This document shows, piece after piece, positions 2,711-58,533 of a stretch of 64,000 bases of DNA. Under the pieces are notes generated by a model. The model ran no database searches. It saw only the letters and a list, made by a program, of their open reading frames with translations, and was not told the origin of the DNA. The position numbers were made by a program, and so were the translations under genes. Numbering within the stretch: the stretch's first letter is position 1; every line of letters begins with the position of its first letter. Origin of the DNA: Candidatus Yanofskybacteria bacterium (GTDB lineage: Bacteria > Patescibacteriota > Minisyncoccia > 2-02-FULL-40-12 > GWA2-44-9); contig JADLBM010000014.1 of assembly GCA_020847715.1 (NCBI GenBank), positions 14,420 to 78,419 of the forward strand. Reading direction: 5' to 3'.

Positions 2711-3292
2711 ATGCCGGTCATTACCATCGTTATTTCTGAGATTGCGGCGGTTCTCACCCGCTTTGCGGGGCACACCTGGTACGACGCTGTTTCGTACGGT
2801 CTTGTCGTTCCGGTGCTCGCGTTCGTGCCGAGCGCTATCCATCGACAGGCACCGCAGCTTTCGCCACGATGGCGAACAATGATGGAATGGCTGGCATTCG
2901 CACTCCTCGCAATCACTGCGCCGGCGACGGTGAAGCTGCACGCGATGGGGTTTCAGTACGACCGCTTCCTGCACTTCGCCGCGGCCTTTCTATCGCTCTT
3001 TGTCGCTGTCGGTATACTCACGGCGTATCGGCCGGAATTTGTGCGGCGGGGCTCGCGGCTCGTCGGTGCTGCGGCGCTATTCATGGTTGCCGCTCTCTTC
3101 GTGTGGGAGGGACATCAGTATACCGCCGACCGTATCTTCGGGACGCGACTGTTCTATGATTCACAGCAGTCTATGAAGCGAGACTTCTGGGAAGATATTG
3201 GATTTGGTATGCTGGGCATTATCGGTGGGCTCTGCGTGCTTGTCCCTCGGCGGGGACAGCTCGCCGAACTCACGCTACCACCTATCTCATGA
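2711..3292 (+). CDS. hypothetical integral membrane protein
   Basis: 193-aa ORF with several hydrophobic helices. Confidence 0.5.
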   Translation: MPVITIVISEIAAVLTRFAGHTWYDAVSYGLVVPVLAFVPSAIHRQAPQLSPRWRTMMEWLAFALLAITAPATVKLHAMGFQYDRFLHFAAAFLSLFVAVGILTAYRPEFVRRGSRLVGAAALFMVAALFVWEGHQYTADRIFGTRLFYDSQQSMKRDFWEDIGFGMLGIIGGLCVLVPRRGQLAELTLPPIS

Positions 3293-7028: not shown

Positions 7029-7971
7029 CTTCTGGTCCACGCTCCCGACGCCATTCTTCGTGCTCGCCCCGATGGCGGATGTTACCGACGTGCCGTTTCG
7101 GTCCATTGTGGCACAGTGCGGGCGACCCGATGTGTTCTACACCGAATTCGTATCGGCGCATGGCTTGGCCTCATCAGGACGCGAGCGGCTCTTGTTGGAT
7201 CTCGCGCTCACCGACCGCGACCACCCTATCGTGGCACAGTTCTTCGGCACGGTACCCGAGCATCTGCATGCGGCGGGGAAGCTTGCGCGAGAGCTTGGGT
7301 TTGATGGTGTCGACATCAACATGGGTTGTCCCGACCGCGCCATCATGAAGCAGGGCGCAGGTGCGGCGCTAATGCGGGAACCGTCGCGTGCGGTCGAGCT
7401 TATCGCGGCGTTGCGCGAAGGTGCTGGCGACCTGCCGGTTGCCGTGAAGACGCGGCTTGGCCTGCGGAGTACCGATGAAATGGATGCGTGGGTAGGGATG
7501 GTGCTGTCGGCAAAGCCCGATGTGCTCGTGGTGCACGGCCGTACCGTTAGTGAAATGAGCAAGGTGCCTGCGCACTGGGAGCTCATCGGTCGCGCTGCGC
7601 AGATGGCGCATGATGCAGGCGCGCTCTGCATTGGAAATGGCGATATCATGAGCCGCGCGCAGGGACTTGAGAGGGCGTCATTGTCGGGGGTTGATGGTGT
7701 TATGGTCGGGCGCGGCATCTTCCATAATCCATGGTTGTTTGCAGGTTCTCCCGAGCTGCGTACGCCCGCCGAGCGCCTCCGCCTCCTGCTCGCGCACACG
7801 GATGCGTGGGTCGCGCACTGGGGTGGTATCAAATCGTTCGATCTCATGAAGAAGTTCTATAAGGTGTATGTGTCCGGATGGGACGGTGCCGCGCACCTTC
7901 GCGCAAAACTTATGGAGGCGCACGACGCCGAAACCGTCCGCTCCATCGTCGCAGAAAGTGGTATCCTCTGA
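6994..7971 (+). CDS. dus: tRNA-dihydrouridine synthase
   Basis: Dus-family motifs LAPMADVTD and GVDINMGCP, ~320 aa. Confidence 0.85.
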   Translation: MPPVLNRTTLRNFWSTLPTPFFVLAPMADVTDVPFRSIVAQCGRPDVFYTEFVSAHGLASSGRERLLLDLALTDRDHPIVAQFFGTVPEHLHAAGKLARELGFDGVDINMGCPDRAIMKQGAGAALMREPSRAVELIAALREGAGDLPVAVKTRLGLRSTDEMDAWVGMVLSAKPDVLVVHGRTVSEMSKVPAHWELIGRAAQMAHDAGALCIGNGDIMSRAQGLERASLSGVDGVMVGRGIFHNPWLFAGSPELRTPAERLRLLLAHTDAWVAHWGGIKSFDLMKKFYKVYVSGWDGAAHLRAKLMEAHDAETVRSIVAESGIL

Positions 7972-11150: not shown

Positions 11151-11342
11151 CTACTGCCGGAGCAGGTTCTGGAGACGGGCAGCTTCCGCTTCCTCCTGCT
11201 GTCGGCGCACCTTCGCGGCGTGCTCGGCGGTGTAGGTCCGCCGCGCCCACCGACTCAACGACACGGCGGCGAAGACGGCTCCTGCGATGAGCGGGAACGC
11301 GACGGCGGTGACCGCCGCCACCTTCTTTTGGCCCTCGGTCAT
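11151..11342 (-). CDS. possible small membrane protein (63 aa, MTEGQKKVAAVTAVAFPLIAGAVFAAVSL…)
   Basis: Internal ATG of ORF 11151..11699. One TM helix plus a charged coiled tail. Confidence 0.35.
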   Translation of the reverse strand: MTEGQKKVAAVTAVAFPLIAGAVFAAVSLSRWARRTYTAEHAAKVRRQQEEAEAARLQNLLRQ

Positions 11343-11412
11343 ACGACCTCCTTCGAAATCCATTATAGCATATACAACAGAAAAGTCAACTATCACGCAA
11401 CCGGACCACCCG

Positions 11413-11492
11413 GCCCCTGGAAGGGTCAGTTGCTGTACCAAAGCCGAGCGGACAGCGATGGCGGCGTTACGCACTCTGACCCGAGTAGGGGC
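11413..11492 (+). repeat. copy 1 of a conserved ~60-nt structured element (core …TCAGTTGCTGTACCAAAGCCGAGCGGACAGCGA…TTACGCACTCTGAC…), enclosed by the stem gcccct/aggggc
   Basis: Near-identical to 58061..58145. Two nested internal stems (GUCAG/CUGAC, GCUGU/ACAGC) plus a distinct but complementary outer stem. Confidence 0.6.
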
Positions 11493-11570
11493 TGGGTGGG
11501 GAGGAGGCGTGAGCGACCGTCCACATGTGCGGCGTTGGCGCCTGTAACAGGTTGCGCTATACTGGGGTAC

Positions 11571-13586
11571 GTGAAGATCATCAACGTCCTGAAGGACGAT
11601 ACGCTCGCAGAGATCCTCGATCTGTTCCGGCAGGCACCTGCCGGCGAGGTCATCCTCGTCTTGCCCCGTGTCGGCAAGCTCTTTCGTACCGAAGACCACT
11701 TTGCGGCGTTCGCATCGGAGGCCTCACAGGGCGGAAAAACCGTTTCCTTGCTGACTGCGAACGCAACCACCGCGCAACTAGCGCGGAAGTTCGGATTTAC
11801 GGTTATGGCGTCGGGAAATGTGAAAAAGCCCGTTGCGGTGAAGGGAAAGAAGAAGGCGACCGCGCCCACTGCTCAGCTTGCGACCGCGCCGCTTCCCGCG
11901 GATGACGACATTCAAGACTTCGGAGACAACGCCGATCTTGGCGATGTTGTCCTCCCTTCGGATCAAACGATGGGCATTAGTCCGAGCGGCTCCGATGAAG
12001 TAGATCCCCTCCACGGCATGACGCTCCTCGATGAAGAGGGGAATCCAGTAGACGAGAACGAAGATGGGGAGCCCGACCAGCCCGACAACGACGACCTCAC
12101 CATCGGCGACGAATCGGCCGACCTGCTTGCGGCGTCCGAGGATGCGCCCACCGCAACGCTCGCTGCCGCAGTCGATGGCATCCGGCACGGCACCACTCGG
12201 AAAACCATCACACCCGCCGCTCGAGCAGAGCGTCCCATGAGGGTACCCGTTCAGCGTAGTGCCGCTCGCGATGACCTCGACTACATCGACGCCATGTGGC
12301 GCGATAAGGTTGGCCGCTCTTCGGCCCGCCCGCTCGCATCCTCACGACTTGCGGCGCGCATCCCGTCGTTCCTATCGCGCGTATTCGGAGGTGCGGCGCG
12401 TTCGCTAGGCACCGTTCCGACATCAAAGCGTGTGGCTGCTGGTATGTTAGGGGGCACCATCATTGTTCTCGCGGCTGTCGTCTATATGGTGACCGGTTCC
12501 GCACGGGTTTCCCTTGTTCCGGTTGCGCACTCGGTGGATGCTCAATACACCGTGCAGGCATCGGATGTCTTTTCGAGCATCGACGACACATTCCTGAAGA
12601 TTCCGGGGCAGCTCCTCGAGGTCAGCAAGACGCAGTCCGTTACGGTTCCTGCAACGGGTACGCGGGATGTTGCCTCGAAGGCACGGGGGAGCATCGTCAT
12701 TTCCAACGAGTACTCGTCATCCCCGCAAACGCTCATCGCTACCACCCGTTTCCGCTCCGAGGACGGCCACATCTTCCGCACGCTCCAGTCGGTCGTCGTC
12801 CCTGGAAGCACCATGGAAGCCGGAAAGCCGGTTGCGGGGACGGTTCGTGTTGAGGTTATCGCCGACAAGCCGGGTCCGGAATACAATGTTCCCGCTGGAA
12901 AGTTTGTCATTGCGGCATTCCTCGAGAAGGGCGACACCGAGAAGGCCGGCAAGCTGTACGGAACGTCGTTACAGACGATGTCTGGCGGCGCGAGCGGACC
13001 GTCCAAAGTCGTCACGCAAGCTGATTTTGACCAAGCCAAAGCGCTCGCAACGGCGGGTGTAAAAGAACAGATCAAAGCCGCGCTTGCCGCGCAGGGGAGC
13101 ACGCTCATGGTCATTCAAGCGGATGCGCCCACGTTCGCAGAGGCGCAGGCGACTGCCCAGCCGGATGACGCGGCAGAAACCGTCACCGTCACCGCATCCG
13201 CGCGACTCAAGACCATCGCATTCCGAGCGGAAGACCTCAACGAGCTCATCCGCCGATTTGCGCTGAAGAAGGATCGTCTTGTTGTCGATCCTGGAGCACT
13301 CAAGGCTGAATACACCGAGGTGCGCTTCAAGGAGGACATGGGGATTTTGAGTTTCACACTCTCGCTGACCGGCTCTGGCTATCAGCCGATTGACGTATCG
13401 GCAATTCAGAAGGATGTCGCTGGCAAGAATGGCAGTGAGATTCGTGAGTATTTCCGCCAACAGAGCGAGATTCAGTCTGCCACCATCACGCTGTCGCCAT
13501 TCTGGGTGCGAAGTGCGCCTGCAAAATCGGGCAGAATCCACGTCGATATCGTATTCCCAGCCGAAGGCGAGACATCCACGGAATAG
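11571..13586 (+). CDS. large hypothetical membrane protein (~670 aa): cytoplasmic N-domain, one TM helix, large extracytoplasmic domain
   Basis: Long ORF. The first in-frame start after the upstream stops is GTG at 11571 (VKIINVLKDD…). TM segment LGGTIIVLAAVVYMV. No recognisable catalytic motif. Confidence 0.55.
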   Translation: MKIINVLKDDTLAEILDLFRQAPAGEVILVLPRVGKLFRTEDHFAAFASEASQGGKTVSLLTANATTAQLARKFGFTVMASGNVKKPVAVKGKKKATAPTAQLATAPLPADDDIQDFGDNADLGDVVLPSDQTMGISPSGSDEVDPLHGMTLLDEEGNPVDENEDGEPDQPDNDDLTIGDESADLLAASEDAPTATLAAAVDGIRHGTTRKTITPAARAERPMRVPVQRSAARDDLDYIDAMWRDKVGRSSARPLASSRLAARIPSFLSRVFGGAARSLGTVPTSKRVAAGMLGGTIIVLAAVVYMVTGSARVSLVPVAHSVDAQYTVQASDVFSSIDDTFLKIPGQLLEVSKTQSVTVPATGTRDVASKARGSIVISNEYSSSPQTLIATTRFRSEDGHIFRTLQSVVVPGSTMEAGKPVAGTVRVEVIADKPGPEYNVPAGKFVIAAFLEKGDTEKAGKLYGTSLQTMSGGASGPSKVVTQADFDQAKALATAGVKEQIKAALAAQGSTLMVIQADAPTFAEAQATAQPDDAAETVTVTASARLKTIAFRAEDLNELIRRFALKKDRLVVDPGALKAEYTEVRFKEDMGILSFTLSLTGSGYQPIDVSAIQKDVAGKNGSEIREYFRQQSEIQSATITLSPFWVRSAPAKSGRIHVDIVFPAEGETSTE

Positions 13587-13590
13587 GCCG

Positions 13591-13619
13591 TTGACAGCCT
13601 GAAAGGGGTCTGCTATCAT
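13591..13619 (+). promoter_or_regulatory. sigma70 consensus-like promoter (TTGACA-17-TATCAT) for the infA-ribosomal operon
   Basis: Exact -35 hexamer, 17-nt spacer, good -10, ~55 nt upstream of infA. Confidence 0.55.
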
Positions 13620-13674
13620 GGCCTAGCTTTGTTGCTCTGCCTCAGTGGCAGACTTCGGGCTTTTGTAAGCACCC

Positions 13675-13887
13675 TTGAGCGACCAGAAAAAGCAAAAAGT
13701 CATCGGCACCGTCATTGAGGCGTTGCCCGACGCCACGTTCCGCGTCCAGCTCGACGACGGAACCGTTGTGCTGGCATACTTAGCGGGCCGCATGCGGCTT
13801 CACTATGTCAAAGTTATGCTCAGCGACAAGGTGACCCTCGAGCTGAGCCCCGACCGCACCCGTGGCCGGATCGTATATCGCAACTGA
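13675..13887 (+). CDS. infA: translation initiation factor IF-1
   Basis: 70 aa, S1-like. [34 protein letters not shown]…GRIVYR aligns with IF-1. TTG start. Confidence 0.85.
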
Positions 13888-13897
13888 GTCTTCTGCT

Positions 13898-14011
13898 GTG
13901 AAAGTACGCGCTTCTGTAAAACCGATGTGCAAGAACTGTAAACTCGTACGGCGCAAAAAGCGCTTGTATTGTGTGTGCAAGATTGCAAAGCACAAGCAGC
14001 GTCAGGGATAA
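13898..14011 (+). CDS. rpmJ: 50S ribosomal protein L36
   Basis: Read by eye: 37-aa [37 protein letters not shown], the classic L36 zinc ribbon. GTG start. Below the ORF-track size cutoff. Confidence 0.85.
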
Positions 14012-14029
14012 CACCTATTTCAATTCCAC

Positions 14030-14416
14030 ATGCCCCGTATTTTCGGTGTCACGATTCCAGATAATAAGAAGATCCTGTACTCCTTGCCGTACCTGTTTGG
14101 CATTGGGTTGACGACCGCGGGGGTCATCTTGAAGAGCGCGGGTATCGACCCGACCAAGAAGGCCAGCGAACTGTCGGGTGAAGAGCTCGGAAAGATCCAA
14201 AAGATCATCGAGCGCGCATACAAGATCGAGGGAGACCTTCGCAAGGAGATCGGTTCCAACATCAAACACTACCGTGAGACGGGGACCTGGCGCGGCTCGC
14301 GCCTCGCTCGCCGCCTGCCGGTGAAGGGCCGCAGTAAGACCAACAGTCGCACGACGCGCGGAAACGTTCGCCGGACGATGGGTTCCGGTCGCGCGAAGGC
14401 AGCTGAGAAGACATGA
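14030..14416 (+). CDS. rpsM: 30S ribosomal protein S13
   Basis: MPRIFGVTIPDNKKI…, canonical S13. Confidence 0.95.
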   Translation: MPRIFGVTIPDNKKILYSLPYLFGIGLTTAGVILKSAGIDPTKKASELSGEELGKIQKIIERAYKIEGDLRKEIGSNIKHYRETGTWRGSRLARRLPVKGRSKTNSRTTRGNVRRTMGSGRAKAAEKT

Positions 14417-14424
14417 TCTGACAT

Positions 14425-14859
14425 ATGGGAAAGAGGACTATCATCACAAAAGAAGGAGAATCCGCCGCCCCCGAGGCTGCTGCAGCTCCCGCACGCAAGA
14501 GCGCCAAGAAGCAGGTGCTCAACGGTGTCGTGCACATCAATATTTCGTACAACAACACGCTCATCGCCGTGTCTGATTTGGCTGGCAATGTTATCGCATT
14601 CTCCAGCGCCGGCCTTTTGGGCTTCAAGGGGAGCAAGAAGTCCACACCGTACGCCGCCAACCTCGTCGCAAAGGATGCCGTTGAGAAGGCAAAGCGGTTT
14701 GGTCTTACCAATGTTCGCATCGTGGTAAAGGGCGTCGGTCCGGCTCGTGAGAGCGCCGTCCGCGGTGTCGCCGGTACGGGTCTCAACATCACTTCACTGA
14801 TGGATACCACGCCGGTTCCGCATAATGGCGTGAAGTCTCCGAAGCCTCGCCGCATCTAG
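14425..14859 (+). CDS. rpsK: 30S ribosomal protein S11
   Basis: Canonical S11 core (VHINISYNNTLIAVSD…). Confidence 0.95.
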   Translation: MGKRTIITKEGESAAPEAAAAPARKSAKKQVLNGVVHINISYNNTLIAVSDLAGNVIAFSSAGLLGFKGSKKSTPYAANLVAKDAVEKAKRFGLTNVRIVVKGVGPARESAVRGVAGTGLNITSLMDTTPVPHNGVKSPKPRRI

Positions 14860-14871
14860 CAATTTCTACAC

Positions 14872-15516
14872 ATGGCACGTTACCTCGGACCAAAAGAAAA
14901 GATCGAACGACGACTGGGCGAACGCCTCGGGTTGAAGGGTGAGCGCAGCAACTCACCGAAGTCAGCTCTCGTGAAGCGCCCGTATCCGCCCGGCCAGCAC
15001 GGCAGCGGACGTCGTCCCCGAAAGCTCTCTGAATTCGGTACCCAGCTGCGCAGCAAGCAGAAGGTCCGCCAGATGTACCGCCTCCTTGAGAAGCCGTTCA
15101 AAGCATATGTGAAGAAGGCGCTCGAGAATGTGAAGCGCGAATCCCCGTACATCGGTGTGGTGCGCTCACTGGAAACCCGCCTCGACAATGTCGTCTTCCG
15201 GATGGGTATCGCACAGTCCCGCGATCAGGCTCGCCAGATCGTCGGTCACGGCCACATCACGGTGAACGGCAAGCGCGCGAAGACTCCTTCGTACGTGGTC
15301 CGCATTGGTGATGTCGTCGGTGTTCGCGAGCAGTCGAAGGCGTCCCCATACTTCACCGCCCTGTTGCCCCGCTGGTTCGCCACCTATGTCGTTCCTGAGT
15401 GGCTCGAGGTCGATAAGACCAAGCTCACCGGTTCGCTGAAGGCGATTCCGACGGCAGATCAGAGCGGCGTTCAGTCAGGCGACCTGCAGGCACTCATCGA
15501 GTATTACAGTCGGTAA
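14872..15516 (+). CDS. rpsD: 30S ribosomal protein S4
   Basis: MARYLGPKEKIERRLG…, canonical S4. Confidence 0.95.
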   Translation: MARYLGPKEKIERRLGERLGLKGERSNSPKSALVKRPYPPGQHGSGRRPRKLSEFGTQLRSKQKVRQMYRLLEKPFKAYVKKALENVKRESPYIGVVRSLETRLDNVVFRMGIAQSRDQARQIVGHGHITVNGKRAKTPSYVVRIGDVVGVREQSKASPYFTALLPRWFATYVVPEWLEVDKTKLTGSLKAIPTADQSGVQSGDLQALIEYYSR

Positions 15517-15606
15517 CCATAATCTGCGTCCTCAGCGACGGTTCCGCGAGTCCCCACCCAGTAACCTCCTTCCCTCGCGATTCCCGACCCGAGTCCGCAT
15601 GCAGTC

Positions 15607-16344
15607 ATGATCCAGCTCCCCGAAGCAATCAGCGTAGTGAAGAAAGAAGGAAATGTTGCCGTCTTCGAGATCGGTCCGTTGATGCCGGGCTATGGAGCTA
15701 CGGTCGCAAACCCGCTCCGCCGCGTGCTGCTCTCGTCCCTCGAGGGCGGTGCGGTCACCTCGCTGAAAATCAAGGGTATCGACCATGAGTTCGCCGCGAT
15801 TCCGGGCGTCCATGAGGATATCATCCAGATCATCCTGAATCTCAAGAAGCTCCGCTTCCGCGTCTTCACCGACGAGCCGGTTCTTCTGAACATCGTCGCA
15901 AAGGGTGAGACCACCGTTACCGGCGAAGACATCCAGCTTACATCGGATGTCGAGCTCTGCAATCCGGAGCAGGCCATCTGCACGCTTACCGACAAGAAGA
16001 TTACGCTCGAGATGGAGCTCACGGTCCAGAAGGGTCGTGGGTATGTGTCCGTGGAGCAGCGCCAGAAGGAGAAGCTCCCCATCGGCGTTATGGCCGTGGA
16101 TGCCGCCTTTTCGCCCGTCCGCGTGGTAAACTTCACCATCGAAGATGTCCGCGTCGGGCAGCGCATCGACTTCAACAAGGTCGTTATGGAGGTGCAGACC
16201 GACGGTTCCATCCAGCCCGAGCAGGCGATGAAAGAAGCGGCGACCATTTTGGCCGACCACTTCAATGTCGTCGCCCAGATCGCGGTGCCGGAACCGGAGG
16301 CAAAGCCCGCCAAAAAGGCCAAGAAAGCGAAGAAGAGCGAGTAA
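15607..16344 (+). CDS. rpoA: DNA-directed RNA polymerase subunit alpha, N-terminal domain only (245 aa, no alpha-CTD)
   Basis: Alpha-NTD dimerisation and assembly motifs. Ends in a Lys/Ala-rich tail. rplQ starts 39 nt later, so no CTD is encoded here. Confidence 0.9.
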   Translation: MIQLPEAISVVKKEGNVAVFEIGPLMPGYGATVANPLRRVLLSSLEGGAVTSLKIKGIDHEFAAIPGVHEDIIQIILNLKKLRFRVFTDEPVLLNIVAKGETTVTGEDIQLTSDVELCNPEQAICTLTDKKITLEMELTVQKGRGYVSVEQRQKEKLPIGVMAVDAAFSPVRVVNFTIEDVRVGQRIDFNKVVMEVQTDGSIQPEQAMKEAATILADHFNVVAQIAVPEPEAKPAKKAKKAKKSE

Positions 16345-16382
16345 CTGGACTGAAATACTAAGTCGTGATATTGTAAAGCGCC

Positions 16383-16730
16383 ATGAAACGTGGAAGCAAC
16401 AGACTATTCGGCAGGGAATTCCAACAGCGCAAAGCCTTTCTGAAGGCCCTGTTGACGGCACTCGTGAGCCACGGCAAGATCCGCACCACGGTTGCCCGCG
16501 CGAAGTCCATCCGTCCTGCCGCTGAAAAGCTGGTCACGCAGGCGAAGCGCGGTACACTGGCGAGTCGCCGGCTCCTGCTCCGCTCGGTCGGCACCAAGGC
16601 GGCCGCAACGCTCGCCAAGGATATTGCGCCGAAGTTCGCTTCTCGCGCTGGGGGATACACCCGCATCGTGAAGCTCGGCCAGCGCGCATCCGATGGATCG
16701 CCGATGGCAGTCATTGAATTTGTCCAATAG
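16383..16730 (+). CDS. rplQ: 50S ribosomal protein L17
   Basis: Canonical L17 sequence. Confidence 0.95.
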   Translation: MKRGSNRLFGREFQQRKAFLKALLTALVSHGKIRTTVARAKSIRPAAEKLVTQAKRGTLASRRLLLRSVGTKAAATLAKDIAPKFASRAGGYTRIVKLGQRASDGSPMAVIEFVQ

Positions 16731-16733
16731 ACC

Positions 16734-17075
16734 ATGATCGTACACGAGATTGACGCAACCAATCAGTCCCTCGGCCGCATGGCGAGTCGCATCGCGATGA
16801 TGCTGCGCGCCAAAGATACCCCGGGCTGGACTCCGAACATCATGCCGGAGGTTCAGGTGGTCGTACATAACCTCGATAAGGTCGTGTTCAAAGGCACGAA
16901 GGCAACCAGCACCGTCTACTACCGCCACTCGGGATACCCGGGCGGCCTCCGCGAGCGCACGCTCGAGGAGATGTGGGAGCGCAACAAGAAGGAAGTCTTG
17001 CGCCTCGCCGTTCGTGGCATGTTGCCGGAGAACCGCCAGCGCGATCAGCTGCTCAAGAACCTCATCGTCAAATAA
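16734..17075 (+). CDS. rplM: 50S ribosomal protein L13
   Basis: Canonical L13 sequence. Confidence 0.95.
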   Translation: MIVHEIDATNQSLGRMASRIAMMLRAKDTPGWTPNIMPEVQVVVHNLDKVVFKGTKATSTVYYRHSGYPGGLRERTLEEMWERNKKEVLRLAVRGMLPENRQRDQLLKNLIVK

Positions 17076-17080
17076 GCACT

Positions 17081-17623
17081 ATGGCATCCACTGACACCAC
17101 CAACCTGCAGGAACCGACGACCAATCCGACCTTTGTGGACACCGTCCGCGAGGAGGATGATATCGATCTCGGTCCCGTGACGCTCGAAGAGCTCCCCGAG
17201 GGTGCTCGCGAGAAGTACTTCGAAGCCGTCGGCCGCCGCAAGGAGGCTGTTGCCCGCGTCCGCTTGATGACCCGCAAGTCCGGCGATCCGGCGACCGAGG
17301 ATGCCGCACTCATGACGGTCAACGGCAAGGACTATGCCGCATACTTTTTGGATAAGAACCTCATTCTCCGCGTCGAGCAGCCGCTCCGCCGCCTGAAGTC
17401 GCTCCAGCGCTTCAAGGTGAGCGCAAGGGTGCAGGGTGGTGGTATCTCCGGACAGGCTGATGCGGTTCGCCACGGTATCTCCCGCACGCTCGAGCTCTTC
17501 GACGCGAACTTCCGCAAGAAGCTCAAGAAGGCAGGATTCCTCACCCGCGACTCCCGCAAGGTGGAGCGCAAGAAGCCGGGGCTCAAAAAAGCACGAAAAG
17601 GACCCCGCTGGGCGAAACGATAA
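17081..17623 (+). CDS. rpsI: 30S ribosomal protein S9 (with an N-terminal extension)
   Basis: C-terminal GGGISGQADAVRHGISRTL…KKPGLKKARKGPRWAKR is canonical S9. Start re-set to MASTDTT. Confidence 0.9.
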   Translation: MASTDTTNLQEPTTNPTFVDTVREEDDIDLGPVTLEELPEGAREKYFEAVGRRKEAVARVRLMTRKSGDPATEDAALMTVNGKDYAAYFLDKNLILRVEQPLRRLKSLQRFKVSARVQGGGISGQADAVRHGISRTLELFDANFRKKLKKAGFLTRDSRKVERKKPGLKKARKGPRWAKR

Positions 17624-17658
17624 CATTCTGGCGATCTGCATTGTTGCAGGTCCGCGAT

Positions 17659-21446: not shown

Positions 21447-22119
21447 GAGGATAGAAGAGTTGGTCGAGCTGCTGCGCGTTCGTGGCACCCGTGGGTTGGC
21501 GGTCGACATCGACGAAACCCTGTCGGACTCCAACCGGCACTGGTTCGACGCCATGTTCGCATTCGCCCGTCCGCACGGGAAGTCGCGCGACGACATCATG
21601 CGCGACCACAAGTTCGTCGAGGATGTGCCTGAGTGGCGCACGCCGGAGGCACGCGCGCGCATTCACGCGCTCCTACACTCCAACGAGTTCTGCACTGACA
21701 TCCCCGTTATCTCCGGCGCGCTGGAAGGGGCGTGGAGGGTCCACCTAATGGCGCGTATCGCCGCGTACATCACTGCCCGACCCGAAGCCGTCCGTCAGGG
21801 GACACTGCAGTGGCTCAAGCACCGAGGGTTTCCTGAGGCGCCCATCATCATGCGGGATGAAGATGTCGACCTGTCCGCCCACAACGACGGGAAGAACGGG
21901 TGGAAGGCGCGCATGCTTTCGGCCGCATACCCCTTCATCCTCGGTATCGTGGACGACAACGCCGGACTCACGCGAGCGCTCCGCGCTGTGAACTATGCGG
22001 GCACGCTGTTTCTGTACGGTCCCCAGTGGCAACCGGTGAACGCCAGTCCGAGCGTGATACTCTGTCCGACATGGAATGATGTCTCACAGGCGATACACCT
22101 GCGCTCCTGCGCATGGTAG
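21447..22119 (+). CDS. HAD-superfamily hydrolase, 5'(3')-deoxyribonucleotidase (NT5C)-like
   Basis: Motif I GLAVDIDETL (DxDxT) near the N-terminus. Start re-set to MRIEELV after the SD ACGGAGGTGGGC. Confidence 0.55.
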
Positions 22120-22206
22120 CTCTCGACCGAGGCTCACCCCTCGGTCTTTTCTTTTCTAAAATATGTGGTATTATGTGTCTGTTCGTTTCCAATGAAAGGG
22201 GAACCA

Positions 22207-22947
22207 ATGCTGCAAGGCATGTTGGCGGCCGCGCTCGGCGCGGCTACGGGAACGGTTCTGGCGCTCATGATGGGCGCGCTGTGGCCGCTGGGCACCCTTC
22301 TGGGTGGCTTGGTCGGCTATCTCTCGTACAACACTCGCGAGGTCGCCGAGGCGACCCGACGGGCTCTTTCGGAGGTCCCGTGGCGCGTCTTCGCTCGGCG
22401 ATGGCCTGCGCTTCTGTGGAGCGTTCTCGCATTCACCTGTATCTCGCAGACCGTTGCCGTTCTGGTCTGGCCCTTCATGCATGAGATTGGGGTGCAGACC
22501 CCCGGTGTCATCTGGCGGATCCTTGTGGTTGCGACCCTCTTCGGCCCGTTGCCCGGCTTTTTTGGCGGTGTCGCCGCCATGATTGACCCCGATCCCACGA
22601 GTGTCTGGAGCTCCACCAAGCTTTACCGCTGGATGGCCATCAACCTGAACCTCGTCGTGCTCGCGTTCTACTGGGCTCCCGTCCTGCTCTTCCGTACGGC
22701 CAAGTGGTTGTTCGGAGTGCTCCAGCTCGGCATTCTCGCGATGCGCATCTGCGCGATGATGGCTCCACACATCCTCCGCGATGTGTACAGCGAGAAGCGG
22801 CTCATCGCCGGTCTCTCGGCGTTCCAAGGGGCGGTCATCGGCTACCTCGCCCACGACTGGGTCTTTGCGGGTGTCGCCGGCCTGTCGTTCTTCGTACTGC
22901 AGGTGAGCTTCATCCACCGACGCCTCGCGCCGCAGCAGGGGTGGTGA
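22207..22947 (+). CDS. hypothetical polytopic membrane protein (~246 aa)
   Basis: Six or more hydrophobic helices. Start re-set to MLQGML. Confidence 0.5.
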   Translation: MLQGMLAAALGAATGTVLALMMGALWPLGTLLGGLVGYLSYNTREVAEATRRALSEVPWRVFARRWPALLWSVLAFTCISQTVAVLVWPFMHEIGVQTPGVIWRILVVATLFGPLPGFFGGVAAMIDPDPTSVWSSTKLYRWMAINLNLVVLAFYWAPVLLFRTAKWLFGVLQLGILAMRICAMMAPHILRDVYSEKRLIAGLSAFQGAVIGYLAHDWVFAGVAGLSFFVLQVSFIHRRLAPQQGW

Positions 22948-22948
22948 C

Positions 22949-23356
22949 ATGATTACCACCTACGCCGTCGTCGGCGCTTTCGCGCTCTGGTACGCCTACT
23001 TCGGAACCGAATACTACCTGAACGGTGGAGCCCTCGGCCGAGGCCCCAGTCTCATGCCGTTTCAGTGTTTCTGGGACGAAGTCCGCCAAAACATCCCGGG
23101 AGGGTTGACCCGCAAGGCAGCCTTCATCCGCGAGCTTGCCGCACTGAAGCCCCATGGCGCCATCGTCGGGCGTCGTCGCGTCTGGCGGTATGCCGATGTT
23201 GCGGCTCACAGCCTCTACCGCGAGTGCGCGGCCGATGTGCTTCGAGGTTCGATTGAGTTCTGGGCAACGGTCGTTGGGGTTGTGAGTGTTGGCGCCATGC
23301 TCGGCATCGGCCTCAGCCTACTGCTCAAAGACGCACTCCACCTTCTGCTGTCGTAG
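22949..23356 (+). CDS. hypothetical membrane protein (135 aa)
   Basis: Translationally coupled to the previous gene (TGAcATG). Terminator at 23365..23398. Confidence 0.5.
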   Translation: MITTYAVVGAFALWYAYFGTEYYLNGGALGRGPSLMPFQCFWDEVRQNIPGGLTRKAAFIRELAALKPHGAIVGRRRVWRYADVAAHSLYRECAADVLRGSIEFWATVVGVVSVGAMLGIGLSLLLKDALHLLLS

Positions 23357-23364
23357 TACACCAC

Positions 23365-23398
23365 ACACCTCATGCAATACGCATGAGGTGTTTTCTTT
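23365..23398 (+). terminator. terminator (cacctcatgc-aatacg-catgaggtg + ttttc)
   Basis: 10-bp stem plus T-run. Ends the small-gene island. Confidence 0.55.
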
Positions 23399-23431
23399 AC
23401 AACAACGCCCCGGTGAGGGGGCGTAGAGGGG

Positions 23432-23926
23432 CTAGGCTTTTGGTAGGTCATCATCGTCTCTGACCCGTCGAGTAGCTTCCTCAAGGTCGGGAGAATCGTC
23501 CCGTTCTTCGCTGTTGCCAAGCCTTGCTGCCATGTCGCAGACACGTTCGTCGATGGCAAGGTCGCATCCAGTAGCGGCCGCGATGGCAATTCCATCAGCA
23601 TCAGAAGTGTTCTGCGTCCATCGAGTGTTACCCTGTGCGAAGCGCACCACGGACATGGAGTCGTCGTCCCCGTTCGGAACGATGGCGACTCGCTCGACAC
23701 GGACATCGAATCGCTTGAGCAGATGAACGGTCAATCCGTGACACACAGGAAACTCGTATGAGCTTGTGTGTTTGACTTGCTGCGCCGCCGCGCGAATAAG
23801 CGCGACAACCTCTTCGCCGAAGTACATATTAAGTTGCCTCGATCCACTCACCTCATGGAGTACAATGAGCGGCTCTCCTGTTTGCGCGTGCCTTCCGATT
23901 GCAACGATCTTGAAAAGGATCTCCAT
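23432..23926 (-). CDS. bifunctional nuclease (BFN/DUF151) family protein
   Basis: IVLHEVSGSRQLNMYFGEEVVALIRAA…DGIAIAAATGCDLAIDERV matches the BFN-domain pattern. Confidence 0.7.
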   Translation of the reverse strand: MEILFKIVAIGRHAQTGEPLIVLHEVSGSRQLNMYFGEEVVALIRAAAQQVKHTSSYEFPVCHGLTVHLLKRFDVRVERVAIVPNGDDDSMSVVRFAQGNTRWTQNTSDADGIAIAAATGCDLAIDERVCDMAARLGNSEERDDSPDLEEATRRVRDDDDLPKA

Positions 23927-23981
23927 CCCACCCTCCTCTGTACGAGCCTAGGAAAGAATCCGGAACCCGTCAATGCCACGA

Positions 23982-24770
23982 CTAGAGCTTAATAATGTTC
24001 ACGCCGCCCCGCGTATCGATTTCGAGAATGCGGTAGCTCTGGCTGCCGAGATCAATCACAATGTGGTCGCGGCCACGGAACCACGCGGCGCGACGGATAG
24101 GCACCGAAAGGCGCGTAATCTGCTGGCGATCTCCCTCAGTGTGGAACGGCTGGTAGTCGGTGTTGCGGAGCCACAGCACAAAGACATCGTTTCGCGTCCA
24201 CCAGAGAATACGGCTGTTGTCGGTGGGGCGTGCGAATCCCAGCACCGATTCCGCAACGATGGAGGCAGATGCCGCATCGGTACGCCAGAGCGTCGTGCCC
24301 TTGAGCGTGAAGATGCCATCAGCCACACCGACTGCTGCCTTGTGTGGCTCAGATGAAAGTCGCGCAAGCGAGAGCGAAGCCGACGCTTCGTGCTTAAGAT
24401 CGATGACCGATTCGTCATCGAGAGGTAGAAGCATGACCGAAGGGAAATCAGTCAGGAAGCCCTCCTGCACAATTGCTTCTTTTCGCCATGTCGAGTGCCC
24501 GTCGCGCGAGAGGCGCACCTGGTAGGTGCCGGGGAGGAGGCGATCCTGCCCCGCACGATTGCCGAGGAACGAGGTCGAACCGCTCAGCTGGTCGTCTACG
24601 AAAAGCTCAGCTGATGTATTGACTGTTACCGCGATAGCTCCGGTGCGAACAAACTGGCCAGCGTTCCAATCGTAGGCGTAGCCCTGGGCATACCGGATGA
24701 CCACCCACGTAGCGACCGCAAACACGACAACTGCAATCCAAAAGAGGATCCTTCGCGTCCGTTTCTTCAT
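23982..24770 (-). CDS. hypothetical membrane-anchored protein
   Basis: Start re-set to MKKRTRRILFW, then a TM helix and a ~230-aa extracytoplasmic part. Confidence 0.5.
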   Translation of the reverse strand: MKKRTRRILFWIAVVVFAVATWVVIRYAQGYAYDWNAGQFVRTGAIAVTVNTSAELFVDDQLSGSTSFLGNRAGQDRLLPGTYQVRLSRDGHSTWRKEAIVQEGFLTDFPSVMLLPLDDESVIDLKHEASASLSLARLSSEPHKAAVGVADGIFTLKGTTLWRTDAASASIVAESVLGFARPTDNSRILWWTRNDVFVLWLRNTDYQPFHTEGDRQQITRLSVPIRRAAWFRGRDHIVIDLGSQSYRILEIDTRGGVNIIKL

Positions 24771-24832
24771 GTCCCAAGTATACCGCATCCGCGTATTGAA
24801 ATATAGGCGAAATACCGCTATATTCAGGCGCA

Positions 24833-25837
24833 ATGACCCGCAAGATCGGCATCGACCTTGGCACCACAAATACCGTCGTTTTCACGCCGAAGAAGGGCAT
24901 CGTCATCAACGAGCCATCGGTTGTCGCTGTTTCAGTGCTCGATAACAAAATCCTTGCGGTCGGCAATGCGGCGAAGGATATGATTGGCCGCACACCCGAC
25001 AGCATCACCATCGTTCGTCCGCTCATTGATGGGGCGGTTGCCGATTACCGCGTAACCGGAGCGATGCTCCGGTACTTCATCAAGAAGGCGAGCGGCGTGT
25101 TCAATCTCCTCAAGCCGGAAGTGCTCGTATCGGTACCCGCGGGCATCACGAGCGCTGAGAAGCGCGCCGTTATCGAGAGCACGCTCGGTGCTGGCGCAAA
25201 AGCAGTCTACCTCGTAAAGGAGCCGGTGCTTGCCGCCATCGGTGCGCAAATTCCCATCAACAGCCCTATCGGCAACATGATCCTTAACATCGGCGGAGGA
25301 ACCACGGAGCTCGCCGTTATCTCGTTGGGCGGCATCGTATCCGCAAAGTCAGTTCGCGTCGGTGGGAACAAGTTCGACCTCGCCATCGTCGAGTACATCA
25401 AAAAGAAGCACGGCCTTGCGGTAGGGGAGCGCACCGCGGAGCTCATTAAGATCAATATCGGCAGCGCACTCCGCGGCACCCATGAGGATTCACTGAATGT
25501 GAAGGGTCGCGACCTTACGACCGGCCTTCCGAAGACCGTGCAGGTCACGAGCAACGAGGTCACTGAGGCGCTGGGAGAGCACCTGCGTGAGATTGTGCAG
25601 ATTATCAAGGGCGTACTCGAGATGACGCCTCCTGAGCTTTGCTCGGACATTATGGATCGCGGCATTATCATCTCCGGCGGCGGCGCCCTCCTCCGCGACA
25701 TTGCCGACCTCATCACGAAGGTGACGGGTGTTCCGGCACGTGTCGCGACCGACCCACTCTTCTGTGTTGCGCGCGGCACCGGAAAGGTGCTCGAGAACCT
25801 CGAGACCTACAAACGCAACGTCATCGCGAAGCGGTAG
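24833..25837 (+). CDS. mreB: rod-shape-determining protein MreB
   Basis: Actin-fold motifs GIDLGTTNT… of the MreB family. Confidence 0.9.
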   Translation: MTRKIGIDLGTTNTVVFTPKKGIVINEPSVVAVSVLDNKILAVGNAAKDMIGRTPDSITIVRPLIDGAVADYRVTGAMLRYFIKKASGVFNLLKPEVLVSVPAGITSAEKRAVIESTLGAGAKAVYLVKEPVLAAIGAQIPINSPIGNMILNIGGGTTELAVISLGGIVSAKSVRVGGNKFDLAIVEYIKKKHGLAVGERTAELIKINIGSALRGTHEDSLNVKGRDLTTGLPKTVQVTSNEVTEALGEHLREIVQIIKGVLEMTPPELCSDIMDRGIIISGGGALLRDIADLITKVTGVPARVATDPLFCVARGTGKVLENLETYKRNVIAKR

Positions 25838-25850
25838 GCATACTTCACGC

Positions 25851-26918
25851 GTGAAACTCGCTATCGTACACGACTGGATTGTCGACATGGGAGGCGCTGA
25901 GCGCGTGCTTATTGCGCTGCATCGACTGTGGCCGGAAGCGCCCATCTATACACTGGTCGCGAAGCCATCGACCGTGCAGCAATGGTTTCCGAACGCAACC
26001 ATCGTTCCGTCAGTCCTCCAGCGACTTCCTCGCGCATGGGCATACTATCCCGCGCTCGCGCCGATGATGCCATCGGCTATTGAGTCGTTTGACCTCTCTG
26101 GATTTGATACCGTTCTTTCTTCGTCCGCGCTCTTCTCAAAGGGCATCGTCGTCCGCCCCGGCACGCGCCACCTGAGCTACTGCTACAGCCCCGCGCGCAT
26201 GCTCTGGGACCGTTCCGCATCGTACGAACGCCGCGGGATATTCTCGCGGCTCTATCGCCATACGCTTCGTATCTGGGATGTCGCCGCCGCACAACGCCCC
26301 GACGAGCTCATCGCCATTTCCGCAACTGCTGCCGCCCGTATTTCGAAGTACTACCGGCGCTCCGCTATCGTCGTCCCGCCACCGACCCGCTCCGCCCCGC
26401 TTCCCGTCGCAGCATCCGCTCCCGCGCATCCATTCTTCTTGATTGTCGCACGACTCGTGCCACACAAGTCCCTCGAGCTGGTCGTTGACGCGTTCGCAAA
26501 ACTCAAATACCAGCTGGTTATCGTCGGCGACGGCCCGCTCCGGAGACGCCTGAGTCGCCGCGCACGCGCGAACATCACCTTCGCCGGAGCGGTATCCGAC
26601 GAACAACTCGACGAGCTCTACGCCACCTGCCAGGCGGTCGTCGTCCCAAACGAAGAGGACTGGGGGCTCACGGCGGTAGAAGCAATGATGCACGGAAAAC
26701 CCGTGCTCGCACTTCGTCGCGGAGGAGCGACCGAAACGGTTATCGAAGGCCTAACGGGAGAATTTTTCGATGACCCCATTCCGGAAGCACTTGCCGACGG
26801 CATCAAGCGCATCCGAACGAATATCCACACGTACGACGCCGAGAGAATCCGTACGCACGCAGATCAGTGGAACTCCGAGCGCTTCGAGCGCCGCATGCGC
26901 ACGCTCATCGAAGTATGA
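25851..26918 (+). CDS. glycosyltransferase family 4 (GT4-like)
   Basis: GTG start. C-terminal motif (EDWGLTAVEAMMHGKPVL) typical of GT4. Confidence 0.8.
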   Translation: MKLAIVHDWIVDMGGAERVLIALHRLWPEAPIYTLVAKPSTVQQWFPNATIVPSVLQRLPRAWAYYPALAPMMPSAIESFDLSGFDTVLSSSALFSKGIVVRPGTRHLSYCYSPARMLWDRSASYERRGIFSRLYRHTLRIWDVAAAQRPDELIAISATAAARISKYYRRSAIVVPPPTRSAPLPVAASAPAHPFFLIVARLVPHKSLELVVDAFAKLKYQLVIVGDGPLRRRLSRRARANITFAGAVSDEQLDELYATCQAVVVPNEEDWGLTAVEAMMHGKPVLALRRGGATETVIEGLTGEFFDDPIPEALADGIKRIRTNIHTYDAERIRTHADQWNSERFERRMRTLIEV

Positions 26919-35939: not shown

Positions 35940-36018
35940 TCTCCTTCGCTCCCCACCGCATTTTGTAGCCGCTCCGCGCTCCCTCCCCACTCGTGCCTCG
36001 GGTGGGGAGCGGAGGGGG

Positions 36019-57430: not shown

Positions 57431-58030
57431 ATGGATCCCTCCTTTGAACGTATCGCAAAACTCCTTCAGACACTCCCCGGCGTCGGCCCGCGCGCGTCGG
57501 TGCGGCTCGTGCTCGCGCTCCTCGACCGCCCACAGGCACAGCTCGACGAGCTGGGGAGCGCCATTAGCCAGCTCAAAGAGCGCGTTCGCCAGTGCACCGA
57601 GTGCTTCAATGTGAGCGAGGACGAGCTGTGTGGTATCTGCCGCGACCGGCGACGGGACGCCCGCTCGCTACTGGTCGTCGAGAAAATCACCGATCTGCAA
57701 TCCGTCGAGCGCGCCGGACTCTGGCGCGGCCTCTACCATGTCCTCGGCGGCGCCATTTCGCCGGTGGATGGCGTAGGACCGGAACACCTCCGCATTCGCG
57801 AGCTCACCGAACGCGTCGACCGCTTTGTCCAGCAAGCAGGGGCCGTGGAAATCGTCCTCGCCACGAACCCGACCTCCTCGGGAGAAATGACCGCACTCTA
57901 CATTCGCGACCTCTTCGCACGCGTCCCGGGCATCAAGGTCACGCGCCTTGCCCGCGGACTTGCGACCGGCACGCATCTCGAATACGCCGACGAAATCACG
58001 CTGAAGCATGCGCTCGACAGTCGGAAGTAG
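57431..58030 (+). CDS. recR: recombination protein RecR
   Basis: LPGVGPRAS HhH, CTECFNVSEDELCGIC zinc finger, Toprim domain. Confidence 0.9.
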   Translation: MDPSFERIAKLLQTLPGVGPRASVRLVLALLDRPQAQLDELGSAISQLKERVRQCTECFNVSEDELCGICRDRRRDARSLLVVEKITDLQSVERAGLWRGLYHVLGGAISPVDGVGPEHLRIRELTERVDRFVQQAGAVEIVLATNPTSSGEMTALYIRDLFARVPGIKVTRLARGLATGTHLEYADEITLKHALDSRK

Positions 58031-58060
58031 CCTCAGCGCAGGCAACCAAGAAGCAGATGA

Positions 58061-58145
58061 CCGGGCATGAAGGGAGTCAGTTGCTGTACCAAAGCCGAGC
58101 GGACAGCGACGGCGACGTTACGCACTCTGACGAGCGCATGCCCGG
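58061..58145 (+). repeat. copy 2 of the conserved ~60-nt structured element, enclosed by a perfect 9-bp outer stem ccgggcatg/catgcccgg
   Basis: Core identical to 11421..11480 apart from a 2-nt indel and 2 substitutions. The outer stem differs from copy 1 but remains complementary. Confidence 0.6.
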
Positions 58146-58189
58146 CCATCTGCGCACTCGGATCAATACATGCAGATAGTGCAACATAA

Positions 58190-58213
58190 CAAAACGCCCC
58201 TGTCGGGGCGCTG
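58190..58213 (-). terminator. terminator of rplU on the minus strand (gcgcccc-gaca-ggggcg + TTTTGTT)
   Basis: Hairpin plus T-run when read on the minus strand. Confidence 0.55.
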
Positions 58214-58215
58214 TG

Positions 58216-58533
58216 TTATTTTGCGGAGATCTTCGTGATTTTCACTTTCGTGAACGGCTGACGATGACCCTTCTTCTTGTGGTAGCGGGTCTTTGCTTTG
58301 TAGCGGAAGACCATCTTCTTCTCGCCTTTGCCCTCGGCAACCACCGTCGCGGCGACCGTTGCGCCCTCGATGAACGGCTGACCGATGACGGCCTTCTTCT
58401 CGGTCGCGATCAGAAGCACCTCGTCGAAGACGACTTTGTCGCCCTCGTGTTCGAGCTTCTCAATCTCAAGCTCAAGTCCTTCGTGGACGATGTACTGCTT
58501 CCCGCCGGTTTTGATGACAGCAAACGTAGTCAT
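58216..58533 (-). CDS. rplU: 50S ribosomal protein L21
   Basis: MTTFAVIKTGGKQYIVHEG…, canonical L21. Confidence 0.95.
   Translation of the reverse strand: MTTFAVIKTGGKQYIVHEGLELEIEKLEHEGDKVVFDEVLLIATEKKAVIGQPFIEGATVAATVVAEGKGEKKMVFRYKAKTRYHKKKGHRQPFTKVKITKISAK

Follow-up and report, generated by a model that had tools for sequence, protein, structure and literature searches.

In Escherichia coli, the BIME-1 and RIP (RIB) elements consist of inverted REPs placed around a conserved central site for IHF, and the Correia elements of Neisseria and the ERIC sequences of enterobacteria are intergenic hairpin repeats of ~100–150 nt that can affect mRNA processing or stability when transcribed. At attC sites (57–141 nt), recombination is defined by the fold of one DNA strand, with R″/R′ boxes (AAC/GTT) at the base and a variable tip, and the PATEs of the IS200/IS605 group carry two subterminal hairpins (LE and RE), insert 3′ of a fixed tetra- or pentanucleotide and have an orientation tied to replication. 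REPINs, i.e., REP doublets with RAYT transposases in, for example, Pseudomonas fluorescens SBW25 and E. coli, are hairpin repeats of ~100 nt in which compensatory changes are frequent, and movement as single-stranded DNA (ssDNA) has been proposed for them, with either ssDNA or mRNA as the active form (PMC3116915). The element described here was found in a stretch of 64,000 nucleotides from a Candidatus Yanofskybacteria bacterium (GenBank assembly GCA_020847715.1, contig JADLBM010000014.1, positions 14,420 to 78,419 of the forward strand; referred to as the window), in which it occurs twice. It is a structured extragenic repeat that falls outside any named family and is apparently undescribed, and the reading that we favor, at about even confidence, is that of a REP/REPIN-like, non-autonomous dispersed element acting via a single-stranded hairpin, whose invariant apex would be the handle for a candidate trans-factor.

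An exact 34-mer (GTCAGTTGCTGTACCAAAGCCGAGCGGACAGCGA) is located at positions 11425–11458 and 58076–58109, both times on the + strand of the window, with no further match in the window at up to 3 mismatches, none in 100 dinucleotide-preserving shuffles and a chance expectation of 0. By BLAST, copy 1 (11420–11480) and copy 2 (58069–58131) are 93.7% identical over 63 nt, so that the two copies noted in an earlier sequence-only reading were both recovered at their sites. That reading had also described a different but complementary outer stem for each copy, and this holds as well, with arms that are longer than was seen at the time (14 bp with two G·U pairs in copy 1, and 17 bp with one A/C mismatch in copy 2). 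The element measures ~105–120 nt instead of ~60–80 nt. The GUCAG/CUGAC pairing that had been drawn indeed closes the core in both copies, but the GCUGU/ACAGC stem-loop placed within it lies 2–6 kcal/mol above the minimum-energy fold, with a pair probability of at most 0.03. RNA folding of copies 1 and 2 against shuffled sequence yielded z-scores of –5.3 and –4.5, respectively, and both copies are also far stabler than shuffled controls when folded as ssDNA. Their layout is as follows (MFE, minimum free energy):

11400–11505, + strand: copy 1, whole element (subfamily A, see below); cmsearch with model R1 scores 90 bits (E = 1e-18), and the RNA MFE is ~–63 kcal/mol.
11401–11405, + strand: 5′ foot of copy 1, i.e., basal clamp CC (11401–11402) followed by loop GGA (11403–11405).
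11406–11419, + strand: 5′ arm of the copy 1 outer stem (CCACCCGGCCCCTG), with 11486–11499 as MFE partner; the arm type recurs in L003, L011, L013, and L019.
11423–11429, + strand: 5′ strand of the copy 1 inner stem (GGGTCAG), after the purine loop GAA (11420–11422); the partner is CTGACCC (11476–11482).
11430–11474, + strand: apical core of copy 1 (TTGCTGTACCAAAGCCGAGCGGACAGCGATGGCGGCGTTACGCAC, 45 nt), 100% identical to the core of Hainich contig L003 and 93–100% identical in all 16 copies.
11476–11499, + strand: 3′ half of copy 1, i.e., CTGACCC (11476–11482), loop GAG (11483–11485) and outer arm TAGGGGCTGGGTGG (11486–11499).
Up to 11504, + strand: 3′ foot of copy 1, i.e., loop GGA and then clamp GG.
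58052–58154, + strand: copy 2, whole element (subfamily B), in the recR 3′ region; cmsearch scores 73 bits (E = 1e-14).
58053–58069, + strand: 5′ arm of the copy 2 outer stem (GCAGATGACCGGGCATG), a 17-nt inverted repeat (I6) that is 94% complementary to 58137–58153.
58076–58131, + strand: inner stem and core of copy 2, i.e., GTCAG (58076–58080), core (58081–58125), linker T and CTGAC (58127–58131).
58137–58153, + strand: 3′ arm of the copy 2 outer stem (CATGCCCGGCCATCTGC), inverted repeat I6; the ortholog in L006 has two C-to-T changes here that give G·U on the core strand.

The exact core 22-mer (GTACCAAAGCCGAGCGGACAGC) had no match among 185,579 species-representative genomes, because two loop/pair positions vary. 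It did match one Hainich groundwater contig (L003; well H41, 0.1 µm fraction), which has only the 45-nt centre in common with copy 1 (at 100% identity) and in which both stems differ yet still pair. In JADZAY (Yanofskybacteria SJ643, a RecR-90% relative), the element is located in the syntenic recR-rplU spacer, with two G-to-A changes in its core. A second genome scan with a relaxed pattern (TGTACCAAAGCCNAGCGNACAGC) yielded 12 matches in four metagenome-assembled genomes, to which nhmmer added one. In total, 16 distinct copies were found in six genomes or populations (two in the window, one in JADZAY, four in CAYZRE, six in CAYHIK, two in JBBTQV (H41-bin111), and one in L003), and a covariance model trained on six of them recovers exactly these 16. 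The model revealed no further copy in the rest of the window, nor in ~100 kb around recR of 8 more distant populations, and every carrier met so far belongs to one small clade of ultra-small groundwater Patescibacteria centred on Candidatus Yanofskybacteria. The CAYZRE and CAYHIK records are labelled "Saccharibacteria", although they are clearly close to the Yanofskybacteria window.

By their outer arms, the copies fall into subfamilies:

Subfamily A (5′ outer arm ccacccNNgccctgg): window copy 1, L003, L011, L013, and L019.
Subfamily B (5′ outer arm ccNgggcatgcgc): window copy 2, L006, L012, L017, and L018.
Subfamilies C, D, and E (three further arm types): CAYHIK only.

The outer stems are therefore not peculiar to each copy, as the two window copies had suggested, but recur across genomes. 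This recurrence likewise led us to reject an insertion into terminator hairpins that were already there, and indicates that the stems belong to the element. Copies of the same subfamily inside one genome are 95–97% identical over 115–119 nt, with unrelated flanks. Moreover, assemblies break at the element, with L001 ending within it and L012 ending 33 nt past it. When further copies were sought in relatives, as the sequence-only reading had proposed, the 14 that were added all kept the conserved core and the flanking inverted repeats.

All 16 copies are predicted to fold into an unbranched rod, with the same order of parts from base to tip. The base is a GC clamp of 2–5 bp, followed by a purine-rich 3×3 loop (GAG/GGA, GGA/GGA, GAA/AAA, and similar), and the flanks at the feet of the element read GCGAGC... 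and ...GRAGCG. Next come the outer stem of 12–21 bp, a second purine-rich internal loop and an inner stem of 5–7 bp (GTCAG/CTGAC, GGACAG/CTGTCC, GTTCAG/CTGAAC, GCTCGC/GGGAGC, or GGTCGC/GGGACC). The tip is formed by the near-invariant 45-nt core (93–100% identical among the 16 copies), in which the pairs UGC/GCA, GUA/UAC, GCCG/YGGC, and GC/GC extend the rod towards a terminal GNACA loop.

Covariation of the stems was counted on a model-fitted alignment (A5), although the ungapped stem register could be seen before any model was made. Standard pairs occupy 96.3% of 541 cells, vs. 27–38% when the partners are slid by 1–3 columns, and none of 500 shuffles reached the observed covariation score. 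Both partners change in 17 pairs, i.e., 14 of the 15 outer-stem pairs and 3 inner-stem pairs; the GGGTCAG/CTGACCC inner helix of copy 1, for instance, covaries with GCTCGC/GGGAGC, GGACAG/CTGTCC, and GTTCAG/CTGAAC elsewhere. Within the near-invariant core, only two pairs are informative, and both fit the rod: positions 17 and 30 form G·U in 14 copies, A-U in one and G-C in one, and positions 10 and 37 form C-G in 15 copies and U·G in one. The view that compensatory change around an invariant core marks a real structured element, first taken from two copies, has thus been strengthened by 14 more, with nearly every stem position covarying.

To compare the two strands, the 5′ arm of each copy was aligned to the reverse complement of its 3′ arm, with G·T and A·C treated symmetrically. 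On the core strand (which is the + strand of the window for both copies), the raw mismatches were 33 G·T or T·G vs. 4 A·C or C·A. Counted as distinct subfamily-by-position events, they came to 24 G·U vs. 4 A·C (p = 1.8e-4), and three of those four A·C events lie outside the main stem. The opposed unpaired positions are purine-purine on the core strand in 70 of 73 cases, and this strand makes the more stable RNA in 14 of the 16 copies, with a mean difference of 9 kcal/mol. A foldback of 450 nt that occupies the recR-rplU spacer in another relative was taken as control, and had no such bias (11 G·T vs. 13 A·C). Because of the G·U excess, the purine-purine loops and the stability of the core strand, we conclude that selection acting on a single-stranded form, always of the same polarity, has shaped the element. 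This form could be RNA or ssDNA, as both tolerate G·T/U wobbles and tandem purine pairs.

Comparison of syntenic sites revealed both gain or loss of the element and its persistence. At the recR-rplU site, the window, strain L001 and JADZAY (L006) have the element, and L007, L008, and L022–L027 lack it. The divergent promoter region between the small open reading frame (ORF) and the 671-aa gene at copy 1 measures 131 nt with the element in the window and 27 nt without it in CAYZRE, where the empty site (L011, ~7250–7290) keeps the same TTGACT/TATAAT promoter, the small ORF and the CCACATG...TATACT landmarks. CAYZRE was used for this comparison instead of JADZAY, in which the 666-aa neighbor is not homologous. 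Conversely, the spacer after rpsI contains an element in CAYZRE and none in the window. The block running from the 671-aa gene over rpsK-rpsD-rpoA to rpsI is itself syntenic between both genomes (L011 1054–6233 vs. window 12535–17624; 67–75% nucleotide identity), and in CAYZRE it is inverted relative to its A-type element, which lies at the rpsI end and not at the end of the 671-aa gene. With regard to persistence, the ortholog of copy 2 (L006 10649–10755) is 86% identical to it, vs. 33% and 45% for the adjoining spacers and 81% for the recR coding sequence. Because of this difference with the spacers, a copy can be kept in place under constraint, or homogenized by gene conversion with other copies. 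Between genomes, the core is more strongly conserved than coding DNA.

Two stretches near these recR copies are complementary to the element. The final recR codons in the window (GCATGCGCTCGACAG, 58006–58020) are complementary at 14 of 15 positions to 58127–58141, and an extra solo 5′ half-arm (GGGCATGCGCTCGTCAG, L006 10617–10635) upstream of the JADZAY element is perfectly complementary to its 3′ half. To judge from the letters, either complementarity could reflect an alternative pairing or the remnant of a second copy.

All 16 copies are intergenic, and their neighbors are unrelated housekeeping genes (recR/rplU, rpsI, rplC/tuf, secY, ssb/rpsF, uvrC, a P-type ATPase, and dsbA), in line with the earlier remark that the element is not the leader of one gene class. 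The flanking genes are convergent for ~7 copies, divergent for 3 and tandem for ~6. Orientation relative to co-directional neighbors is mixed (sense for L017; antisense for L016, L014b, and L011), and opposite orientations occur 385 nt apart in L014. As had been stated, copy 2 lies between the convergent genes recR (57431–58030) and rplU (58216–58533, – strand). Copy 1 was correctly placed upstream of a large gene, which starts 66 nt further on and encodes 671 aa, although the label "surface protein" given to this gene could not be verified, as it has no Pfam domain. The transcription signals nearest to the window copies are:

11362–11389, – strand: promoter-like TTGACT-16-TATAAT (11 of 12 consensus positions, TG-extended), pointing away from copy 1 to a 63-aa ORF (11151–11342).
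11535–11563, + strand: promoter-like TTGGCG-17-TATACT, downstream of copy 1 and ahead of the gene at 11571–13586.
58193–58212, no strand assigned: bidirectional terminator-like hairpin between copy 2 and rplU.

Provided that these two promoters are real, copy 1 would be flanked by divergent promoters and transcribed by neither. Copy 2 and its JADZAY ortholog are found 22–49 nt past the recR stop codon, before a bidirectional terminator in common with rplU, and are therefore predicted to be within the recR 3′ untranslated region (3′UTR), in sense orientation. Elsewhere, L011, L014a, and L014b are antisense and situated between the terminator of one minus-strand unit and the next promoter, and L014m is sense and also located between a terminator and a promoter, so that at least five copies appear, from these predicted signals, to lie outside transcription units. 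For 15 of the 16 copies, the 120 nt upstream showed no sigma-70-like promoter in sense orientation; only L014m has one weak match (9 of 12), at a distance of ~98 nt. The element itself contains a –35-like TTGCTG, and an internal promoter was rejected as no –10 box could be read at the right spacing. None of the 16 copies is followed by a T-run, a terminator scan calls neither window copy, and separate canonical terminators adjoin many copies.

The remaining gene content of the window is housekeeping only, with alaS, pyrD, rpsK-rpsD-rpoA, rpsI, mreB, glycosyltransferases, gltX, priA, fmt, efp, the dnaK operon, cysS, and dnaB next to recR and rplU. The RecR encoded there shows 100% identity to a protein named from a Candidatus Yanofskybacteria metagenome-assembled genome, which assigns the window to a chromosome of the Patescibacteria. 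A small hydrophobic ORF (~50–63 aa) occurs both in the window (11151–11342, – strand) and in L011 (~7290–7450, + strand), with a GGAGG ribosome-binding site and no Pfam match; in both genomes it has a near-consensus TTGACT-16-TATAAT promoter and is divergent from the 671-aa gene. The cumulative GC skew of the window rises to ~22 kb and falls steadily to the end, with its turn at ~22000–26000. If this turn is a replication switch point, the two copies would be on opposite replication strands even though both are on the + strand. In CAYHIK, ~3.5–3.9 kb separates rplC and tuf (L014 880–4758, CAYHIK010000009.1) at a place where the S10 operon is normally compact. This interval holds short ORFs without Pfam domain, an EamA-like fragment and three element copies (one of them inverted), including a duplicated 226-nt terminator-element-promoter module (1521–1746 and 3057–3278, 90% identical).

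Searches against known families did not yield a name for the element. At the gathering threshold, Rfam 15 gave only 2 tRNAs in the window, and only tRNAs and a large-subunit (LSU) fragment in 110 kb of loci with the 14 other copies; by E-value, a search with copy 1 gave only sR53 (E = 3, 9.9 bits). A distant BLAST of phage and plasmid collections gave no match, scans of viral contigs with three sub-patterns gave nothing or one chance match (L005) that lacks the 5′ half of the core, and a literature search found no description of the element. A tRNA- or tmRNA-like nature was rejected, since the ARAGORN matches in the window were limited to tRNA-His and tRNA-Glu at other sites and the Rfam tRNA model was negative; the word GCCGAGCGG resembles a class II D-arm by eye only. 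When the core was translated in all five of its open frames and searched against a protein database, only the already known L004 ORF was returned (E = 6), and a coding core was rejected because the observed changes, as read, are non-synonymous in frame 1. Resemblances by eye to the 11-nt tetraloop receptor, 5S rRNA words, the dif XerC arm and HUH nick-site words (GTTAC) cover no more than a few bases each. Pfam scans of the ~35 larger ORFs of the window and of the genes beside most copies revealed no transposase, RAYT/Y1-HUH protein or reverse transcriptase. Finally, comparison of boundaries within subfamilies B2, A, and E showed no target-site duplication, and no insertion sequence was seen.

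Among the described systems, REPINs are likewise ~100-nt, multi-copy, extragenic hairpin units that lie beside unrelated genes, persist in a lineage and accumulate compensatory changes. However, their arms (REP 16-mers with GTAG) are invariant and their spacer is least conserved, whereas the arms of our element vary around an invariant 45-nt centre; moreover, the element has no GTAG at its feet, no RAYT among the scanned window and neighboring genes, and far fewer copies than the hundreds that are typical of REPINs. The BIME-1/RIP type shares the palindromic intergenic composite with a conserved centre between inverted arms, but there the arms are conserved REPs and the centre is a duplex protein site, in contrast to the one-strand bias and covarying arms observed here. 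Similar in length to attC sites, the element also resembles them in its single-strand fold of two stems split by internal loops and in its terminal structure, but it is the base that varies and the tip that is invariant; it has no AAC/GTT boxes and no integrase or cassette array, and is dispersed singly next to housekeeping genes. Correia- and ERIC-like miniature inverted-repeat transposable elements (MITEs) are comparable in intergenic position, length and long hairpin, yet these have conserved terminal inverted repeats, target-site duplications and similarity over the whole sequence, vs. subfamily-specific arms, an invariant apex and no observed target-site duplication in our case. The IS200/IS605 PATEs, in turn, also lack terminal inverted repeats and target-site duplications, and form strand-specific ssDNA hairpins as non-autonomous units, but the element is a single rod, the 5′ flanking bases vary between copies, and both orientations occur less than 500 bp apart (L014). 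As for structured RNAs in general, the expected helix covariation and strand-specific pairing are present, although a strand-specific ssDNA fold would give the same signature.

A functional structured RNA module, with the core strand transcribed within mRNAs or as small RNAs, is the main alternative, which we hold to be possible if somewhat unlikely. The rod would then protect or process RNA ends (as a block to 3′-exonucleases or as an RNase III substrate), its apex would bind a conserved protein or RNA, and duplicates would be kept as useful. RNA helices classically show what is observed here, namely an excess of G·U over A·C (24:4), a succession of A-U, G·U, and G-C at single stem positions and purine-purine internal loops, and core pairs 17-30 and 10-37 vary compatibly with pairing. 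Copy 2 and its ortholog are moreover in the sense orientation in the recR 3′UTR, ahead of the terminator, and both the orthologous element (86% vs. 33–45% in the spacers) and the core, which beats coding DNA in conservation, point in the same direction. Nevertheless, G·T wobbles and tandem G·A pairs are tolerated in ssDNA hairpins too, so that the strand signature alone is no proof of RNA. The orientation of the copies is mixed, with L016 and L014b antisense between co-directional genes, at least five copies are outside predicted transcription units, and there is neither an Rfam family nor, apart from the weak L014m match, a sigma-70-like sense promoter upstream. The replicator and RNA readings are not exclusive. 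REP-type elements have often been co-opted.

A site in double-stranded DNA would account for other aspects of the placement. Here, the 45-bp centre would bind a nucleoid or regulatory protein and the arms would allow a cruciform, as in BIME/RIP elements with an IHF site or in supercoil insulators that separate transcription units. Copies are often located exactly between transcription units (copy 1 between divergent promoters; L011, L014a, L014b, and L014m between terminator and promoter), independently of their orientation, and the sequence of the centre is conserved like that of a protein site. Such a site predicts no difference between strands, however, while 24 G·T stand against 4 A·C and 70 of 73 opposed positions are purine-purine on one strand, with no bias in the control foldback; nor would duplex binding need full covariation of a stem of ~20 bp, which makes this explanation improbable. 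Even less probable is that the copies are ordinary terminators or attenuators of neighboring genes that share a loop sequence by chance. Although 7 of the 16 copies sit between convergent genes near stop codons and the stems have a very high stability, a U-tract is missing after every copy, neither window copy was picked up in the terminator scan, and canonical terminators adjoin many. Some copies are instead upstream of promoters or in divergent promoter regions, and an invariant, structured apex of 45 nt is no feature of a terminator. As to a chance similarity or assembly artefact, 0 matches were expected by chance and the copies come from independent assemblies (NCBI, ENA, JGI, and Logan) of six genomes or populations, which leaves it hardly any probability.

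The REP/REPIN-like reading is preferred since the element is a small, non-coding, multi-copy hairpin with subfamilies, an orientation-blind intergenic placement, gain and loss at syntenic sites and compensatory changes in its stems. New copies would enter "safe" spacers between genes by way of an intermediate that is single-stranded and always of the same polarity, and might then be kept for long periods. As the stems would only need to pair, they could drift into subfamilies by compensatory and G·U-type changes. The apex remained constant as the stems changed at every position; it is the obvious part for a trans-factor to recognize, and may serve as a sequence-specific handle read by an enzyme or protein encoded elsewhere in the genome. 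What we infer is that the copies arose by mobility, that their intermediate is single-stranded and consists of ssDNA in preference to RNA, and that the trans-factor exists. As working form, ssDNA is slightly ahead of RNA, because many copies seem untranscribed and none has an evident promoter of its own. Of the options listed in the sequence-only reading (small ncRNA, REP- or MITE-like repeat, protein-binding site), our analysis hence leans towards a REP/REPIN-like repeat acting through one strand, and away from a discrete small-RNA gene, since sense promoters are absent upstream (bar the weak match at L014m) and the orientation is mixed.

Several observations weigh against this REP/REPIN-like reading. 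No mobilizing enzyme was found among the Pfam-scanned genes (the ~35 larger window ORFs and the neighbors of most copies), and we could define neither a target-site duplication nor a target motif or an excision footprint. Copy numbers are low, with 2–6 seen per genome in pattern-limited searches, and the conservation is opposite to that of REP/REPIN elements and MITEs, the centre being invariant and the arms variable. At the recR-rplU site, the identity of the ortholog (86%, vs. 33–45% in the spacers) is even slightly above that of the recR coding sequence (81%), which points to purifying selection in place (i.e., a function at host level) or to gene conversion. In addition, copy 2 and its ortholog are sense within the predicted recR 3′UTR, as a functional RNA module would be, and the presence of both orientations within 500 bp in L014 leaves no simple replication-strand rule of the IS200/IS605 type.

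Other repeats and palindromes were noted in the same genomes. In a RecR-76% relative, the recR-rplU spacer contains a near-perfect foldback of ~450 nt (L008 10610–11075; also in L009 and L010), with an RNA MFE of –219.7 kcal/mol (z = –10.3) and feet reading GTCAGTT...AACTGACGAG. The feet GTCAGTT...CTGACGAG are common to this foldback and the element, but kinship was rejected in favor of a different repeat, as the foldback has no 45-nt core and no strand bias. Segments of it recur at 74–88% identity in CAYZRE (L017 1899–1984, immediately adjoining a copy of the element) and in the Hainich contig (L003 9809–9857), so that these genomes contain at least one second family of palindromic dispersed repeats. 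Three CAYHIK contigs share a ~64-nt repeat of 82–98% identity that is unrelated to the element (L016 4401–4464, L021 7108–7171, and L020 3284–3347 and 3408–3470). Within the window, an 85-nt inverted repeat (63156–63240; 27-nt arms at 63168–63194 and 63201–63227, plus 16-nt outer arms) overlaps the 3′ end of tRNA-Glu (63220–63295, – strand) and includes an inverted partial copy of a tRNA T-arm, and the region 60565–60651 resembles 63137–63226 at 77%. A further stem of 15 bp (CCTTCGCTCCCCACC / GGTGGGGAGCGGAGG) with a 43-nt loop is located between convergent genes at 35943–36015, and has neither a U-tract nor the core of the element.

Patescibacteria (the candidate phyla radiation, CPR) have streamlined genomes of ~1 Mb, which are thought to hold few repeats and little mobile DNA. 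It was therefore unexpected that a repeat family should multiply in such genomes, and that the one ortholog checked should be better conserved than the spacers around it. It also has practical relevance, as assemblies break at the element, and it deserves a covariance model and a name whatever its working form, to avoid misannotation as coding sequence or terminators. If the element acts as RNA, Patescibacteria would possess a structured RNA that is specific to one clade, occurs in multiple copies and has not been described before. Its architecture, with a structured invariant apex on stems rewritten by compensatory change, is the reverse of that of REP/REPIN, MITE, and attC elements, and makes it a natural case for asking what reads the tip of a hairpin, with the apex as ready-made bait if a partner protein exists. 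More speculatively, and in our estimation unlikely, the element might be the cis part of a novel mobilization or maintenance system native to Patescibacteria, i.e., a rod-shaped single-stranded replicator, with the apex as the recognition hairpin of a nuclease or recombinase, or as a small catalytic or ligand-binding nucleic-acid domain. If true, this would amount to a REPIN-like "Darwinian replicator", inside-out compared with all described REP, MITE, and attC elements, in some of the smallest bacterial genomes.

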